From Escherichia phage vB_Eco_F27, in sequence record OP870146.1: DNA of 64,000 bases; one strand, 5' to 3'. A program made the position numbers and the translations under genes. Numbering within the stretch: position 1 is the first letter of the stretch; every line of letters starts with the position of its first letter. Below the pieces are notes generated by a model that did not search any database, was not told the origin of the DNA, and worked only from the letters and a program-made list of their open reading frames with translations. Below are positions 34,616-60,854 of the stretch, piece by piece.

Positions 34616-34856
34616 CTCGGTCCCATGATTTGGCCATTAATTCGGACATAAATTCTTCAATGCGCGTTTCTTTAGATGGACTTTCACTATTAGAGACCGC
34701 AAGTTTGTAATCTGCAATAGGACAGAACATATCAAGGTCCATATTAAGGTCGTCTTTGATTTTTTCTTCTGACACATCTTTATCGTATGTGTACAGATAA
34801 CTATCACATGATTCTGATTTAATGTAAATTGCTATACTCATCTCAAATTCCTGCAT
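34605..34856 (-). CDS. hypothetical acidic protein
   Basis: 83 aa ORF. Confidence 0.4.
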   Translation of the reverse strand: MQEFEMSIAIYIKSESCDSYLYTYDKDVSEEKIKDDLNMDLDMFCPIADYKLAVSNSESPSKETRIEEFMSELMAKSWDRDDE

Positions 34857-35335
34857 TCGGTAATAAAACGTTCAACTTCATTATTCTTGGCCTTTATCTT
34901 GTCTTTACGTTCCTGTAAACTACTTTTAACAAGATTAATAATGATGCCTACAGTACCTCCACCAATAATACCACCAATAATACTTACAATAGTAGATGCT
35001 AATAAGATAGCGATAATATCTAGTACAGCAAAGGCACTTACTTTAGTACTAAAAAACCATACCGACGGTACAAATATAATCCATCCTGTTATCCATTGGC
35101 ACTTATTGAAAAACTTTTCAAGCTCAGCTTGAGTTGTTCGTATTACTTCATCGATAGGTTGATATCCATTAATGTATCTGTTCACAATAATACCTGCTGG
35201 CTGGTCGATTTTAAATTCTTGGCAAATATGTTTCACTAAGTAGGATGGACATCCTGTCCAATCTACCGAATAATACGAAATACCTTCGTTGCCATCGTCT
35301 ATATTAGACCAATATGTTTTGTTAATCATTACCAA
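34838..35335 (-). CDS. membrane protein
   Basis: 165 aa with TM helices (WIIFVPSVWFF..., VLDIIAILLASTIVSIIGGIIGGGTVGIIINLV). Confidence 0.45.
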   Translation of the reverse strand: MVMINKTYWSNIDDGNEGISYYSVDWTGCPSYLVKHICQEFKIDQPAGIIVNRYINGYQPIDEVIRTTQAELEKFFNKCQWITGWIIFVPSVWFFSTKVSAFAVLDIIAILLASTIVSIIGGIIGGGTVGIIINLVKSSLQERKDKIKAKNNEVERFITECRNLR

Positions 35336-36016: not shown

Positions 36017-36322
36017 TTATTTTCCTCGACATTCTTTAATGAAATTTTCTAGATTGGTAGATTCAATAGCTTTTTTACGAGCTTCAACATGTTCTTCTTC
36101 AGACAATTTACATTTATAATTGACCCAGACATTATGGTCGAAACTAGTCGTGGCATATAATAACAAAGCTCCGACGAATAATAAAAACGGTGATAAGAAT
36201 ATACAACCAGGCACACCATCCATACTGTAAGCCTTTTGTAATACTGCAACAGAAAGAGTTGCGTAAAAAAGTGATGCAAATATTGTTAAAAGACCAATTC
36301 GGTTGGTTTCGCCTAATTTCAT
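36017..36322 (-). CDS. small membrane protein
   Basis: 101 aa, two TM segments. Confidence 0.45.
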   Translation of the reverse strand: MKLGETNRIGLLTIFASLFYATLSVAVLQKAYSMDGVPGCIFLSPFLLFVGALLLYATTSFDHNVWVNYKCKLSEEEHVEARKKAIESTNLENFIKECRGK

Positions 36323-36351
36323 AATATTCTCCTCATGTTTTAATAGGACTA

Positions 36352-36382
36352 CTATAACATAGTCCTATAATTGTGTAAACAG
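36352..36382 (-). promoter_or_regulatory. T4-type early promoter GTTTAC-18-TATAGT
   Basis: Minus strand TGTTTACAcaattATAGGACTAtgtTATAGTAGTCCTAT. The -10 lies inside a perfect 9-bp inverted repeat. Confidence 0.55.
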
Positions 36383-36392
36383 TTTTGCGAAA

Positions 36393-37349
36393 TTATTTGA
36401 AAGGTTTTACCATATGGAAATTTTGTTTGAAACGTTTGACGTAATCGTCATGTCCTAAGCTTTGGTACATACTTACTACTTTGCTGTAGTTTTCCCAGGC
36501 GTATTCACGGAACCAACCGGAGGTGATGCTTGTGCAGACTTTTTCTAATGCCATCATGAAACTGGCTTCAGGGTTAATTTTAAAGTCATTAGGAATCTGA
36601 GAACGTTCTAATGCTAGTACACATGATTCTTCATATACACCGGCCAATTTGACCATTTCTGGTAACGATTCGAACTTCTCGCGTGAGGTCATGACTTCAG
36701 AACCGTCTTTCATATAAAATGTATAAGCCGGACGGTCTGTTAGTGCAATGGCTTCATGAATAGTATCATGGTCATATGTATAGATGTCATCTTTAAAGAA
36801 CGCACTTTTAGAAGTGTCAAGAACCGGGTGAGCATAGTTCAAGGTTTCTTTCTGGCGTTTCAGCATAATTTCAGTAAGTTCATCGTTCAGTGTAACACCT
36901 TTACCACGAAGATACTGAATATGGTTCATAGTCTTTAAAAAGAATGGATTATTTTTCTTGAAACGATGAGACATCTTAATTGCAAGACATATCTCAGGAG
37001 TTGCCCAGTAAAACCCGTTCAAACGGTCTTTAGTCAAATTTTTCTTGGCGTATTTTAAAAGGTCATAAGAAGACGTGAAATCTTCAGGAGTGAGTTCACC
37101 GACTAATTCACGGACATTAGTGATTGCCGGAACAATATATGCTTCAAAATGAGTTTCGCGTCCATTATGGAAGCATTTGAAAACTTGGACATCAGGGTTA
37201 TCTTGGTGAACATATACACCCATCATTTGATTTTTGAATGCATTCCAAGAACCTTGGTCCGCAATAAAGTCCCAATCGCTATTTTTGATAGCGCTAGAAT
37301 CAATAAGACCATGATAGTGAAGTGCACGAGAACCAATAACTAACATCAT
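36393..37349 (-). CDS. hypothetical 318-aa protein
   Basis: No motif recognised. Confidence 0.45.
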   Translation of the reverse strand: MMLVIGSRALHYHGLIDSSAIKNSDWDFIADQGSWNAFKNQMMGVYVHQDNPDVQVFKCFHNGRETHFEAYIVPAITNVRELVGELTPEDFTSSYDLLKYAKKNLTKDRLNGFYWATPEICLAIKMSHRFKKNNPFFLKTMNHIQYLRGKGVTLNDELTEIMLKRQKETLNYAHPVLDTSKSAFFKDDIYTYDHDTIHEAIALTDRPAYTFYMKDGSEVMTSREKFESLPEMVKLAGVYEESCVLALERSQIPNDFKINPEASFMMALEKVCTSITSGWFREYAWENYSKVVSMYQSLGHDDYVKRFKQNFHMVKPFK

Positions 37350-37377
37350 AATATTTTCCTCGGATTAATTCATTAAC

Positions 37378-37629
37378 TTAAATTTCACGACATGCGATAT
37401 TATATTCGTCCCAGAGGTCATCGTGTGAAGCCTCTACCAATGGAACGATTGTACCGTTTATGTCTTCATTATAAGGGCAAATTGTACAGTGCGCATCTTC
37501 GAATCGGATGCCTTTGTGTTCAGATTTTTTATAACGCATATCGAATATCTTTGCAAACTTTTCACGAGTAATGGTTTTAGCAACCACTTTGGTTCCGATA
37601 CTTTCGTAATAAATCATTGTGGACTCCAT
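37378..37629 (-). CDS. Cys-containing small protein
   Basis: 83 aa with CTICPYNED...C. Confidence 0.4.
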   Translation of the reverse strand: MESTMIYYESIGTKVVAKTITREKFAKIFDMRYKKSEHKGIRFEDAHCTICPYNEDINGTIVPLVEASHDDLWDEYNIACREI

Positions 37630-37645
37630 TTAATTTGATAGGACT

Positions 37646-37675
37646 ACTATAACATAGCCCTATCTTGTTGTAAAC
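37646..37675 (-). promoter_or_regulatory. T4-type early promoter GTTTAC-18-TATAGT
   Basis: Plus text gataggactactataacatagccctatcttgttgtaaac. Confidence 0.5.
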
Positions 37676-37679
37676 TGTT

Positions 37680-37877
37680 TTAGCAAGAATAACTAGATGA
37701 TACCCAGCCTTGAACAGTGATACTATTATGGGATAATGAGATCGCGTCCTGGAGATTCAGACCTGCGTTATCTTCAATCCATAATGTAACTTCTTCGCGT
37801 TCTTCTGTTGCAATTTGGAACAGGTTTTCCAGAGCAGCTACTGCCGTACGTACAGCACAATCTAATTCACGAGACAT
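37680..37877 (-). CDS. paralog 1 of the GxWVxSSxxC-terminus family
   Basis: 65 aa ending ...VQGWVSSSYSC. Confidence 0.5.
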   Translation of the reverse strand: MSRELDCAVRTAVAALENLFQIATEEREEVTLWIEDNAGLNLQDAISLSHNSITVQGWVSSSYSC

Positions 37878-37886
37878 ATTGTTTCC

Positions 37887-38159
37887 TTAGCAAGTGTGAG
37901 AAGATGCGACCCAACCACCAGTTTCGAGGCTCAGGTTGTAGTCGTATTGGTAAACGTCAGCCCATTCAGCATAGCCGTTTTTTGTACAACGTTCAAGATC
38001 GGCTTTAAGATGTCCGGGTGAATGATAGGTTCCACCCATACCATAAGCTGGATACAAGTCGAATGTTGTGTTTTGTTTATCAGCAATTTCTTTGGCAGCC
38101 TCAATAGCTGCATAGATTTTTGCTACAGCTTCAGCCAGTTCGGTTTGTTCTTTAGACAT
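37887..38159 (-). CDS. paralog 2 of the GxWVxSSxxC-terminus family
   Basis: 90 aa ending ...TGGWVASSHTC. Confidence 0.5.
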   Translation of the reverse strand: MSKEQTELAEAVAKIYAAIEAAKEIADKQNTTFDLYPAYGMGGTYHSPGHLKADLERCTKNGYAEWADVYQYDYNLSLETGGWVASSHTC

Positions 38160-38168
38160 AATGATTCC

Positions 38169-38474
38169 TTAGCACAACGCAGAAGACGAAACCCAAGCAC
38201 CTTCAGTAATAACGTAACCATTACCTTCACGCTTAACATCGCCACCATTATTTTCAATTTCATCTTTCATCCACTGGGATACGATTTCACCCTTAGGATA
38301 ATAAGTACGACCACTACCATAATCACCTACAGAAAATGATACGGCATATTGGTCTGCGATCTTTGTTGCTTCTTCTTCGATACGTTCAGCTTGATTCAGA
38401 AGTTTATAAATTGCATCTGAAGCGGATTTGGCATCATTAAACTCTGGTACTTTAATTTCAATAATCTTACTCAT
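38169..38474 (-). CDS. paralog 3 of the GxWVxSSxxC-terminus family
   Basis: 101 aa ending ...EGAWVSSSALC. Confidence 0.5.
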   Translation of the reverse strand: MSKIIEIKVPEFNDAKSASDAIYKLLNQAERIEEEATKIADQYAVSFSVGDYGSGRTYYPKGEIVSQWMKDEIENNGGDVKREGNGYVITEGAWVSSSALC

Positions 38475-38830
38475 TTTCTACATTCCTTAATAAAGTTTTC
38501 GATTGTTTCATTTTCACGTCTAGCTAGGAGTTCATTATAACTAATCGTTTGAGAAGCGTAAACCTTTTTATTTTTCTTGTTGTGGTTTATAAAATCGTAG
38601 TAAAAATAGACTACAGTACAAAATGATGCGATGGATGCAAAGGCTTGGGTATACCGTAAGTCCTGCCATTGGTCTGTGAATCCACCAGTGTTCCCTATAA
38701 ATCCTAACACAACGCCGTCAATAAGAAATCCAACTAATCCAAAGGCAAATCCCATGCCAATACTCATAATAAAAATTAGAATGTTCTCACCAAGAGAAGG
38801 CCATACGGTTAAGAGTTGAGGCTTTTGCAT
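38471..38830 (-). CDS. membrane protein
   Basis: 119 aa, two or three TM segments. Confidence 0.45.
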   Translation of the reverse strand: MQKPQLLTVWPSLGENILIFIMSIGMGFAFGLVGFLIDGVVLGFIGNTGGFTDQWQDLRYTQAFASIASFCTVVYFYYDFINHNKKNKKVYASQTISYNELLARRENETIENFIKECRK

Positions 38831-39234
38831 CTTATTTCCTTAACGAATTCCATAGCTTCTTCATATTCATACTTTTTAACAGCTTCATCATACTGAGCTT
38901 GGGCTTTTGCGCACTGAACTTTCCATTCGCGTACTCGAGCTCTATAATGACGGCCTTGGTGCCAATATCCTGCCCAATTAATAGGCATTAATAAAAATGG
39001 CACAATAAACGGCCCGGCTATAATAAGTAAAAACACTGCATCAGACGATATAACTTCACTAGAATCTAAAACAGCTCCTATAATCATAAAGATTAAAAAT
39101 GCTAAAGCTAAAATAGGGCCAAATAGTACTTCATTTGGGATTAATTTACGTTTGTATTCGTATGCCCAGGGCTTAATTGGCATGTACAGGGTTGGCTTTG
39201 ACATATTCTCTACATTCCATAATAAATTGCTCAA
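38809..39234 (-). CDS. membrane protein
   Basis: 141 aa, TM hairpin then a basic helical tail. Confidence 0.45.
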   Translation of the reverse strand: MSNLLWNVENMSKPTLYMPIKPWAYEYKRKLIPNEVLFGPILALAFLIFMIIGAVLDSSEVISSDAVFLLIIAGPFIVPFLLMPINWAGYWHQGRHYRARVREWKVQCAKAQAQYDEAVKKYEYEEAMEFVKEIRCKSLNS

Positions 39235-39796
39235 GGATTAAATTGTTAGTGAAATTAGGACTAACAACCATAGTTTCATAAAGCGCATCAATAGCACTTA
39301 AAGCATCAACTCTTTTAAGCAAAGGCTTGCCTTCATACATAGTTTCAGAATCGATGATTAACGTAAAGTAATATTTTTTATTATCGACTAGAACTTCCGT
39401 ATCGATATAAAACATATTAGACCTCAGAAGCTTATCTCTAAAACCATAATAATCTTCAGAGCGTTCGCTGATATATTCCCATTCAGTGTTTAAACAACAA
39501 ACAGACCATGTAGGAGCAACGAAATCGGTGAATCTAATATCATGGTCTGCAACTAGTTTAGCAATAGCTCCGATATCATGAATCATAATACCTGGGGCTA
39601 ATAAAGATTTTCTGCTATGGCTAGCCGTTTTCTCAGTAGTCTCATAAGAAGACGACCAGTACCATTTACGTCCAGTTGCAACATATCGTAATGAATCAAC
39701 TAAAGATGTAGGTGGATTTACCTTATCTCGGAACTCTTCGAACATTGAGTCAATATCATTATTTTGGTTTCGCATGTTAACTCCTTTATTATCCAA
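39173..39796 (-). CDS. hypothetical 207-aa protein
   Basis: No motif recognised. Confidence 0.45.
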   Translation of the reverse strand: MDNKGVNMRNQNNDIDSMFEEFRDKVNPPTSLVDSLRYVATGRKWYWSSSYETTEKTASHSRKSLLAPGIMIHDIGAIAKLVADHDIRFTDFVAPTWSVCCLNTEWEYISERSEDYYGFRDKLLRSNMFYIDTEVLVDNKKYYFTLIIDSETMYEGKPLLKRVDALSAIDALYETMVVSPNFTNNLILEQFIMECREYVKANPVHAN

Positions 39797-39824
39797 AAGG
39801 AGGACCGGAGTCCTCCGTATTATT

Positions 39825-40418
39825 TTATTTCAAAGAGTTAATATATTCTTGTACATCAGCAGAAGTGGTTTCGACGCCGGCTGGAGTGCCATTGAACGTT
39901 TCAACACGAGTCAGAGTGTCTTCGATATCAACCTTAGTCAGTGCAGCGATTTCAATTACATCATCGGCCGTAGAGATACCAAGGGCATTGGCTGCTCGAG
40001 TTTCACGAATGTATTCGAGTTTGATTGCCAGGTTCTGACGAGCATCGTCAAGTTCAACCACCTTACGAGCAATTTCAATTCGCATAGCGGCATACCCGTC
40101 AGCTTTTGTATTAAGTTGTTCGGCAGTTCGACGATACAGAAGACCAAGCTTAGCATGCATGGTAACATCTTGTCCTTCAGCCAGGAGCTTACGAATTTCA
40201 CGTTCCTTAGAAGCGGCTTGCTTGTTCTTTTCATTAACAAGTTCGCGAATACGTTTTTCTTCATTAATAGATTTAACAGAAGCCGTTTTTAGTTCTTTGA
40301 TTTGGGTAATCAACTTATCTGCAGCTGCGTTATACTGTTCTTCGACAGTCAGATTTTTAGCCATAGCAGTACCAAGTTTAGTGCGGATGAATTCAACAAG
40401 TTTCTTCAGTGTGTTCAT
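39825..40418 (-). CDS. coiled-coil protein, possibly PspA/IM30-like
   Basis: Trimmed to [10 protein letters not shown]... (ATG 40418, AAAGG SD), 197 aa. All-helical heptad sequence with stretches resembling PspA (e.g. [34 protein letters not shown]). The similarity is weak. Confidence 0.4.
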
Positions 40419-40459
40419 ATTATTACCTTTCAATTGGTGGTTTATTATCCAACGAGAGC

Positions 40460-40488
40460 ATTATACTCTGCTCTCAAGAGATTGTAAA
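40460..40488 (-). promoter_or_regulatory. promoter TTTACA-17-TATAAT (copy B of the duplicated ~50-bp element)
   Basis: 47/49 identical to 11195..11245. Confidence 0.55.
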
Positions 40489-40716
40489 TTATTTTTTAAT
40501 CAAATTGACATAAAACTCGGCGTCTTCCGGGTGCATGCCTTCGCAGTATTCTTCAACCATGAACTTCTTAACAGCTTCATAAGGACCGCTCAGATTAAGC
40601 TCAGTTGTCCAGAACTTGGAATCTTGGACCGAATCGATACGAACTTCAGGGTGACGGTTGCGAATAACTTCTTCAGTGTATTCATAATCAACGACATCAA
40701 TACTAACTGTAGCCAT
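40489..40716 (-). CDS. hypothetical acidic protein
   Basis: 75 aa ORF. Confidence 0.4.
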   Translation of the reverse strand: MATVSIDVVDYEYTEEVIRNRHPEVRIDSVQDSKFWTTELNLSGPYEAVKKFMVEEYCEGMHPEDAEFYVNLIKK

Positions 40717-43125: not shown

Positions 43126-43416
43126 TTACCGTACCATATTAATGTAGTTATATTCAATGCAACGTAATTTCAAAGGGTTCTTGAAAATATCATATTCAAG
43201 AGGGCCTTTTTCTGTTTCAATAAAGAAATCAAAGTTAACTGTGTTAAATTTAACGTCTTCACAGAGTAATTTAACTTGTGAAGATGAACGGTCGATATAA
43301 ACCTTTTCAACCTCAAAGATAGTCAGAATACCGTAGTCATTAACCAGTGCTTTAGCTGCACGTTGGTCGCTTTCATATCCGTTCTCAATGGACGATACTT
43401 TAGCATAAAGAATCAT
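43126..43416 (-). CDS. hypothetical
   Basis: 96 aa ORF. Confidence 0.4.
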   Translation of the reverse strand: MILYAKVSSIENGYESDQRAAKALVNDYGILTIFEVEKVYIDRSSSQVKLLCEDVKFNTVNFDFFIETEKGPLEYDIFKNPLKLRCIEYNYINMVR

Positions 43417-43793
43417 GAATGTTCCACCATTTCAAAGGTATGAGCATCAACAATATGATACCAGTCAAAATTTTCTTCCGCGTTTTTATAAATTTCGCGA
43501 AGAGCTTCAACAGTTTTTCCTGTAGCAACAAGATCGTCAATACCACCAAGAGGATAACAGTAATAACCAGCAAACAGAAGGAAATTAATAGTTTCTGTAG
43601 GTTCTGGATGCAGAACACCGTTATCGTCTACCACTTCAAAGAAAGTGTAAGAAGGAGTACAAGTTTTAATCCAAGCCCATGCTTGAGCTGCTGAATCAAA
43701 TGGTCTGCGTATCAAACGACAATCAGGGTCTTTAGAAGGATTTGCTTCAAAATCCGCATATACGTGATATTTCATTTTACTCACCTTTTGCAA
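43413..43793 (-). CDS. hypothetical
   Basis: 126 aa ORF with ATGA coupling to the downstream gene. Confidence 0.45.
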   Translation of the reverse strand: MQKVSKMKYHVYADFEANPSKDPDCRLIRRPFDSAAQAWAWIKTCTPSYTFFEVVDDNGVLHPEPTETINFLLFAGYYCYPLGGIDDLVATGKTVEALREIYKNAEENFDWYHIVDAHTFEMVEHS

Positions 43794-60195: not shown

Positions 60196-60854
60196 TGACT
60201 GTACTTAATACAAAGGCTGGAGTTATTTCCCGTCATGCTGATTTTTTGAATTACAGAAAAAATCCAGCTCAAATTGATGTTTTAAACAACCAAGCTGTAG
60301 GTTCCGTGACTATTTCTCAGTTAGCTCGCGGTTTTTATGATGCTAACGTAGAATCTGCAATAAATGATGTCCATAATATGGCACGAGCTGATATTGGTAC
60401 TGTTGTCACAAACACTTCAGGCATATCGCCTGAAGGTACAGCACAAGTTGATTATTGGACTTTTTCTGGTGATGTTCTCGACGATACTTTGGCCCCTGGA
60501 ACGCCGGTCGTTATTAACGTATTTGGACTTGCTGTTAAAGCAACAATCGGTATGACTGATAACGAATTAACGGCACAAGTTCGTATAGCTTTACAAGAAG
60601 CCATTGCTAATCAAATCGCTATTTCTTCTTATAAAGACCATCCGTCTGAAGGTAATAAACTTCAGGTGACATATTTAGATAACCAACGTCATGTGTTGCC
60701 AACATATGCTTCGTTTGGTGTAACAATTTCGCAAGAAATTTTGTCTGAAGCAAAATCCGGATACGGAACATGGAATTTATTGGGTGCCCAAACGGTTACT
60801 CTTGATAACCATGATACTCCTACCGTTTTCTACCACTTTGTGAGAGCCTCATGA
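60195..60854 (+). CDS. 11: baseplate wedge protein gp11
   Basis: Trimmed to [18 protein letters not shown]... (ATG 60195, overlapping the gene 10 stop), 219 aa, same length as T4 gp11. Confidence 0.9.

Follow-up and report, generated by a model that had tools for sequence, protein, structure and literature searches.

Small phage proteins sharing a C-terminal Trp-Ser-Ser-Cys tag are encoded next to a predicted MenT-like nucleotidyltransferase in Escherichia phage vB_Eco_F27 and other phages

The window analyzed here is a stretch of 64,000 nucleotides from Escherichia phage vB_Eco_F27 (OP870146.1), in which a minus-strand trio of small genes encodes proteins of 101, 90, and 65 amino acids (aa) with closely similar ends: a Trp, a Ser-rich run, and a last Cys (Table 1). 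The source region is that of an RB69-like Mosigvirus, positions 36300 to 40500 being 98% identical to RB69 and to phage mogra. The three open reading frames (ORFs), their lengths, and their endings, as proposed in the initial annotation, were all confirmed. That annotation overlooked the near-obligate linkage of such tailed genes to a nucleotidyltransferase (NTase)-like gene, which here lies downstream on the same strand. Consecutive trio genes are separated by 9 nt (TGC-TAA-GGAAnnAnT-ATG), with the ribosome-binding site of the next gene directly after each Cys codon and stop, and the start of the 101-aa gene overlaps the e.3 stop (ATGA). Given these spacers and this overlap, the trio appears to be translationally coupled. 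The shared Cys ending goes beyond chance, as a final Cys occurs in only 5 of the 361 window ORFs that are 40 aa or longer and the trio accounts for 3 of the 5. The Ser codons of the tails read TCG-TCT-TCT, GCA-TCT-TCT, and TCA-TCT-AGT in the three copies. This difference places the selection on the peptide, and the differing synonymous codons rule out a DNA-level repeat or gene conversion.

The trio had been described as three tandem paralogs, which holds for two of its members. The 90- and 101-aa proteins are homologous in their bodies (BLASTP E = 3e-6; 30% identity, 73 aa), match phrog_899 (E = 3.5e-19 and 1.3e-22, respectively), and have in common a helix...IAD segment, sF, YGxGxTYY (YGxGGTY), a central Trp, and G-x-W-x-S-S-x-x-C. 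The 65-aa protein matches phrog_4882 (E = 7.7e-37), and its similarity to the other two is confined to the tail (E of about 1e-3); with the tails trimmed, an hhalign comparison between the profiles of its subfamily and of the main family gave a probability of 0.6%. The 101-aa protein is acidic (isoelectric point [pI], 4.6), and its sole Cys is the C-terminal residue. In the RB69 reference genome (AY303349, 69734-70040; L001, 4869-5175), the equivalent of this gene has a 1-nt insertion after codon 68 that splits it into RB69ORF139c and RB69ORF138c; the RB69 tail also carries a Ser-to-Pro change and reads WVSSPALC once the frame is restored. The gene is intact in the window and in about 126 other phages, and the RB69 insertion reflects either an error in sequencing or a pseudogene of the lab strain.

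Table 1. Features of the tailed-gene locus in the vB_Eco_F27 window
Feature	Coordinates	Strand	Remarks
Tailed small protein, 101 aa	38169-38474	minus	Main family, phrog_899; RB69ORF139c+138c; ends ...GAWVSSSALC
Tailed small protein, 90 aa	37887-38159	minus	Main family, phrog_899; RB69ORF137c; ends ...GGWVASSHTC
Tailed small protein, 65 aa	37680-37877	minus	phrog_4882; RB69ORF136c; ends ...QGWVSSSYSC
Tail codons W-V-S-S-S-A-L-C, 101-aa gene	38172-38195	minus	
Tail codons W-V-A-S-S-H-T-C, 90-aa gene	37890-37913	minus	
Tail codons W-V-S-S-S-Y-S-C, 65-aa gene	37683-37706	minus	
Partner enzyme, 318 aa, RB69ORF134c	36393-37349	minus	Pfam DUF7277 + DUF7275
83-aa ORF, RB69ORF135c	37378-37629	minus	phrog_3723; between trio and enzyme
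Sigma-70-like promoter match TTTACG-17-TATAAT, 10/12	38534-38562	minus	Consensus match only
Sigma-70-like promoter match TTTACA-17-TATAGT with TG	37646-37674	minus	Between trio and ORF135c/enzyme; consensus match only

An exhaustive hidden Markov model (HMM) search of 1.84 billion representatives (E ≤ 1e-3), with clustering at 50% identity, returned 579 clusters for the tailed family, and the tail statistics that follow cover the best 146 of the 579 cluster representatives. These are 67 to 175 aa long, and the end of the profile falls at the end of the protein. The ending W-x-S-S-x-x-x-C, with Cys last, was found in 136 representatives. In the tail logo, Trp at position -7 and Ser at -4 are present in 100% and Ser at -3 in 98%, with Ser, Ala, or Pro at -5, Gly at -8 or -9, and Cys at 0. 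The Cys, initially called strictly terminal, is not quite so: eight representatives carry one additional residue beyond it, and one Acinetobacter phage lineage ends in Ser. In 90 of the 146, the tail Cys is the sole Cys, and the proteins as a group have an acidic median pI of 4.55 and a net charge of -7.5. By tblastn, the 101-, 90-, and 65-aa proteins were matched in 391, 280, and 251 phage records, respectively.

All loci together gave 279 unique tailed ORFs, whose spacing and bodies were compared. The W-x-x-S-S core has constant spacing in 259 of them, and the consensus tag is W-x-[S/A/P]-S-S followed by zero to three residues and a Cys at the chain end. The spacer between the Ser pair and the Cys has a length of 0 in 53 ORFs, 1 in 1 ORF, 2 in 193 ORFs, and 3 in 12 ORFs; the Cys therefore follows the chain end, not the Ser pair. 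After tail trimming, 184 of the 279 bodies fell into one BLAST cluster and several further clusters were homologous to it (hhalign, 73 to 95%), while the 65-aa type and at least three other clusters had no detectable homology to it (0.1 to 17%). These comparisons show the tail to behave as a widespread, portable tag that is found also on bodies sharing no detectable homology, and they bear out the earlier suggestion of a functional C-terminal tag, to which the near invariance of the Trp and the Ser pair also speaks. Few homologs lack the motif, and no protein among the best 146 is multidomain or longer than 175 aa; the tag was accordingly rejected as a piece of a larger protein, even though the phrog_899 profile has 221 positions. 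The description of a tandem, diversifying family also stands, as the bodies diverge faster than the neighboring enzyme (54 to 63% versus 75% identity between RB69-like and JS10-like phages). The small proteins, for which a host-interaction or anti-defense role had been suggested, had no match in PADLOC, Pfam, or NCBIfam.

A tailed subfamily of ~74 aa, present at about 30 loci and not in the window, has a second, internal W-x-x-S-S-C; in JS10 (L003, 3512-3736), the internal unit reads ...DWLNSSC-YGEE... and the terminal one ...IWYPSSC. In the window itself, a hydrophobic 72-aa ORF (43400-43618, minus strand) that ends in ...WWNIHDSLC is a chance match to a loose tail pattern; it has no S-S pair, lies far from the other genes described here, and occurs again in locus L120.

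Linkage between the tailed genes and the enzyme was evaluated in 80 IMG/VR loci selected by the enzyme and in 44 loci selected by the small-protein pattern. In 76 of the 80, one to six tailed genes lie on the same strand just upstream of the enzyme gene (0, 1, 2, 3, 4, 5, and 6 copies in 4, 11, 24, 15, 7, 18, and 1 loci, respectively). The family is thus larger than the trio of the window, with up to six copies in relatives. Of the 1029 ORFs on the enzyme's strand whose end falls in the 3 kb upstream of it, 221 (21.5%) have the tail, compared with 0.7%, 0.1%, and 0.2% of ORFs elsewhere. In the sample selected by the small proteins, the enzyme is directly downstream in 41 of 44 loci, i.e., in 41 of 41 informative ones, as the remaining three contigs extend no more than about 900 bp past the small genes in the downstream direction.

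The number of tailed genes varies between phages. Tandem copies number five in both JS10 and Potts1, where the enzyme homolog lies about 1 to 1.5 kb downstream, and two in Aeromonas phage 25 and three in Pseudomonas phage PsgM04F, where it follows immediately; JS10-like and Klebsiella phages have five copies compared with three in RB69-like phages. Tailed genes also adjoin the enzyme in phiPsa347 (Otagovirus; four copies), DE16 (Phapecoctavirus; three), Moby (Menderavirus; two), and the jumbo phage SE_PL (one). The pairing recurs in Straboviridae, Otagovirus, Phapecoctavirus, Menderavirus, jumbo Salmonella phages, and unclassified metagenomic phages, which shows near-obligate same-strand adjacency in at least six phage lineages.

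Of about 50,700 phage records, 733 contain the enzyme, and its family comprises at least 2212 protein clusters. Across 185,579 bacterial and archaeal species, it occurred on five contigs, all from metagenome-assembled genomes and each with tailed genes upstream; the module is phage specific and virtually absent from cellular genomes. Identical or near-identical copies of the phage proteins also appear in Shigella sonnei and Escherichia coli assemblies, where their contigs measure 59 to 168 kb and look like T4-like phage genomes inside bacterial assemblies. T4 itself has neither the tailed genes nor the enzyme: there was no match to the enzyme HMM at E ≤ 10, and NrdC.11 (annotated “nucleotidyltransferase”) and NrdC.3 were rejected as enzyme orthologs on that account. 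The sole match to the family HMM in T4 (NC_000866) is Tk.1 (60346-60534), which is marginal (E = 0.002; 14.6 bits) and has no tail.

No other gene of the window accompanies the enzyme into distant lineages among the 80 related loci. The e.3/e.4 membrane proteins, ORF132c, ORF133c, ORF135c, nudE, e.2, e.5, and e.6 were rejected as core parts, being absent from distant loci. Elsewhere, the module has RNA ligase and polynucleotide kinase genes as neighbors in SE_PL and BillNye, NAMPT/NMNAT genes in Moby and K412, and DprA-like and metallophosphoesterase genes in PsgM04F, DE16, and Moby, and no consistent third partner is evident among these neighborhoods. A role in RB69 DNA hypermodification was likewise set aside, as the 2026 Nucleic Acids Research paper deals with other genes.

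The partner enzyme consists of an N-terminal Pol-beta-type nucleotidyltransferase domain (DUF7277; 97.1 bits) followed by an all-helical domain rich in invariant His, Asp, Glu, and Cys residues (DUF7275; 265.1 bits), the Pfam gathering cutoff being 27 for each. In 40 diverse homologs, the Pol-beta nucleotidyltransferase signature G6-S7, D25-x-D27, and E69 is invariant, and the helical domain also keeps K125, H128, H194-D195, H198, E240, E241, C243, E248, R249, and C272; GS and DxD are retained in even the most distant homologs. The AlphaFold2 (AF2) model (predicted local distance difference test score [pLDDT], 90.4) has MenT1, MenT3, and MenT4 as its nearest structures, with 5uvd and MenT1 ranked at the top by Foldseek (probability, 1.0; template modeling [TM] score, 0.3 to 0.48). 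Two methods thus show the enzyme, as modeled, to have a MenT-like NTase fold with an intact catalytic signature. At the level of sequence, the enzyme did not match the DUF1814/AbiEii profile even at E ≤ 1 or any entry in PADLOC or NCBIfam, and a profile search of Protein Data Bank (PDB) sequences returned no match. In MenT3, the toxin-specific catalytic residues of C-terminal motifs III/IV are K189 and D211 (PMC7450476); for comparison, sequence conservation among the phage homologs places the invariant K125 and several invariant acidic residues in the C-lobe.

Seven residues (R129, R165, Y172, H174, C272, S277, and R281) are invariant in the enzymes of tail-bearing lineages and are all replaced in the homologs of tail-less Streptomyces, Gordonia, and Vibrio phages, a sequence co-variation with the tails that is only suggestive. 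Acinetobacter phage Henu6 seemed to be tail-less, yet its enzyme keeps all of these residues. A scan of the whole Henu6 genome uncovered an unannotated 62-aa family member (MK240351, 97599-97787, minus strand; L009, 3372-3560; HMM E = 6e-14) about 1.4 kb upstream of the enzyme. Its tail reads ...GEWSASSENS, with a terminal Ser (AGT) in place of the Cys, and the adjacent gp134 ends in ...TWYASND. The linkage therefore holds in Henu6 as well and the Cys is exchangeable for Ser, and this replacement beside an intact enzyme fits a role of the residue as a nucleophile or in hydrogen bonding (polar contact). Loss of the NTase domain does not cleanly explain the tail-less lineages, as the actinophage and Vibrio homologs have a shortened N-domain yet keep GS and DxD; in three further tail-less loci (L036, L055, and L083), the enzyme is full length.

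The small protein is confidently modeled by AF2 as a soluble fold of a helix and a beta-meander, in which the last beta-strand takes in the Trp and the start of the tail. No signal peptides or membrane segments were found in the small proteins, no match to HEPN was obtained in Pfam, PDB-sequence, or structure searches, and no similarity to MenA, MazE, or AbiEi was detected. Nor do they resemble the ubiquitin-like ThiS/MoaD proteins, as the terminus is S-S-x-x-C, there were no beta-grasp matches, and the partner is a Pol-beta NTase and not an E1 fold.

The 83-aa RB69ORF135c, which intervenes between the trio and the enzyme, occurs in 12 of the 80 related loci, all of them close T4-like relatives and none distant, and probably does not belong to the core of the module; its sequence includes a C-x-x-C (HCTIC) and finishes with ...WDEYNIACREI. 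The trio had been credited with its own early promoter. The candidate for it is a 10/12 match to the sigma-70 consensus (38562-38534), which falls about 60 nt before the trio, inside e.3 at its 3′ end. There is no minus-strand terminator-like site between the trio and the enzyme and no late-promoter TATAAATA motif from 27.4 to 42.0 kb, a layout that, as judged by consensus matching, would fit early or middle expression of the module.

The surrounding block of small membrane proteins, in which the trio had been placed, does adjoin it here through e.3/e.4, but this placement is peculiar to T4-like phages and is not kept where the family occurs elsewhere. Several predicted membrane proteins of this block have a second C-terminal motif, F-I-x-E-C-R (with endings such as ...NFIKECRK, ...RFITECRNLR, ...NFIKECRGK, and ...QFIMECREY...). 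The motif is carried by e.2 (34838-35335), ORF133c (36017-36322), e.3 (38471-38830), and e.5 (39173-39796), with a variant in e.4 (38809-39234). Across the 80 related loci, 57 ORFs have it; every one lies on the gene strand, and they are confined to 23 T4-like loci. The F-I-x-E-C-R proteins make up a paralogous family distinct from the tailed one, with a conserved Cys of its own near the C-terminus.

The observations point to a previously undescribed two-part phage system, an NTase with small co-encoded partners. Both families stand in databases as “unknown function” only (PHROGs 899 and 4882; Pfam DUF7275 and DUF7277), and a search of 8 million papers and preprints on the families, the RB69 ORFs, and the concept of a tag-directed NTase found no description. 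The reading that we favor, while granting it slightly less than an even chance, is that one enzyme serves several tag-bearing clients and transfers a nucleotidyl or phosphoryl group to their invariant Ser pair. The module would comprise one to six small, acidic, cytoplasmic tagged proteins and one co-encoded MenT-like NTase, with the tag as the element by which the enzyme recognizes them. The Trp and the last beta-strand may dock to the enzyme, so that the protruding Ser-Ser...Cys end enters the active site. Speculatively, a nucleotidyl (or phosphoryl) group would then move from a nucleoside triphosphate to the Ser pair, and the terminal Cys or Ser could be a second determinant or a nucleophile. 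The small proteins would be a repertoire of effectors that a single modifying enzyme arms or switches in the early phase of infection.

Many bodies, one tag, and one enzyme form the pattern expected for multiple clients. We favor this reading also because the Ser pair is the most invariant element of the tag, because the interchange of Cys and Ser suits a nucleophile or polar contact, and because Pol-beta NTases typically act on hydroxyls. The seven-residue pattern also speaks for it, if only suggestively, as the tail-less Streptomyces, Gordonia, and Vibrio phage homologs are at the same time the most divergent ones and have a shortened N-domain. A bolder version, in which the dedicated NTase loads nucleotides, a short oligonucleotide, or phosphate on the Ser/Cys tails and the nucleotide-armed effectors hit the host early, seems to us rather doubtful. 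We are similarly reserved about whether tag-directed protein nucleotidylylation here would be a genuinely new pathway with no described counterpart. Chemistry on the C-terminal carboxylate (E1-like activation or AviCys decarboxylation) is disfavored because some members have a residue after the Cys.

A different role for the same enzyme, unlikely in our estimation but the strongest competitor, is that of a MenT-like tRNA/RNA NTase, acting for example in host tRNA shutoff or repair, which the small proteins would inhibit or activate as antitoxin-like regulators, the tail plugging or repositioning the active site as in MenA1-MenT1. MenT toxins extend tRNA 3′ ends by nucleotide addition under the control of partners encoded upstream of them, and the 68-aa MenA1 binds MenT1 and induces auto-phosphorylation at its active site (PMC7450476, PMC11375011). 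The closest structures to the phage enzyme are indeed MenT1, MenT3, and MenT4, with which it shares, in the model, a Pol-beta NTase N-lobe and a helical C-lobe, and its gene lies directly downstream of small partner genes just as menT1 follows menA1 (PMC7450476, PMC11375011). The acidity of the small proteins could mimic nucleic acid on an RNA-binding surface, and RNA ligase and polynucleotide kinase genes are close to the module in other phages. Set against this, two to six partners per enzyme with divergent and even non-homologous bodies are unlike a dedicated inhibitor pair. In addition, the enzyme has no Pfam DUF1814 match and carries an extra, larger C-terminal domain rich in His, Asp, Glu, and Cys (DUF7275), and the small proteins lack similarity to MenA, MazE, and AbiEi. 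The module is also confined to phages, with none in cellular toxin-antitoxin (TA) contexts, and what its one to six partners have in common is a C-terminal tag and not a fold.

C-terminal peptides often serve as recognition signals, and the tail could be read by a host factor or another phage factor (a receptor for secretion or packaging, a protease or adaptor, or a host enzyme whose substrate is a C-terminal Cys), the NTase being a syntenic neighbor with an unrelated job. The enzyme-bearing lineages without tails agree with such an arrangement, as do the promoter-like site and the extra ORF between the trio and the enzyme in the window. We nevertheless consider it improbable, as the adjacency holds both ways (76/80 and 41/41) in lineages sharing no other neighbor gene, which in such mosaic genomes is hard to explain without functional coupling; a confidently modeled soluble fold without signal peptides or membrane segments speaks against it as well. 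Least probable of all is a purely structural or metal- or disulfide-binding tail that stabilizes the fold, bridges subunits, or caps the last strand: the Trp and first tail residues do lie within that strand and the two W-x-x-S-S-C units of the ~74-aa subfamily could pair, but most members have a single Cys, the cytoplasm is a reducing environment, Henu6 has Ser for Cys, the same tail sits on bodies without detectable homology, and a structural element is not expected to hold a Cys at the chain end over a spacer of zero to three residues. The metal or disulfide anchoring offered in the initial annotation is disfavored on the same grounds.

The client reading, to which we return, has partial counterparts among known systems. 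NTase-fold enzymes such as GlnE/GlnD and DrrA-type proteins switch their targets by nucleotidylylation of a side-chain hydroxyl, and GlnD joins the NTase to a second metal-dependent domain. In these cases, the modification falls on Tyr in a single conserved protein of the host and involves no terminal tag, and the domain families differ from those of the phage enzyme. In systems for ribosomally synthesized and post-translationally modified peptides (RiPPs), several co-encoded substrates share one short recognition element while the remainder varies, and Ser plus a chain-terminal Cys is a recurrent handle, as in lanthionine/AviCys rings (LanD) and in the carrier thiol of HypE (C-terminal PRIC). 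The phage tailed proteins differ in being folded proteins of 65 to 175 aa and not peptides, and the eight neighboring proteins in the window include no LanB/LanM/LanD, YcaO, radical-SAM, or HypF-type domains. As the Cys is sometimes penultimate (8/146) or replaced by Ser (Henu6), unlike in lanthipeptides and AviCys, chemistry requiring a free Cys carboxylate or thiol is disfavored. The nearest precedent is the type VII TA system MntA-HepT. Pol-beta NTases typically nucleotidylylate hydroxyls, and in MntA-HepT a minimal NTase of this type is reported to modify covalently a Tyr of its co-encoded partner (PMC7641770). The acceptor there belongs to a HEPN RNase, whereas here it would be a putative C-terminal Ser pair on multiple partners that have neither HEPN nor another known domain.

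The module is common and extends over phages of Escherichia, Klebsiella, Enterobacter, Aeromonas, Pseudomonas, Stenotrophomonas, Acinetobacter, and Salmonella, and its carriers include phage types in therapeutic use. T4 lacks it, and it has therefore escaped sixty years of T4 genetics. The pairing of one enzyme with variable proteins bearing an eight-residue tag gives a testable hypothesis of a new mechanism of protein modification or regulation. If the tag is a portable handle for the enzyme, it might become a tool, and if the small proteins are host-directed effectors, the variation in their copy number (one to six) would add a new dimension to the way phages adapt to hosts.

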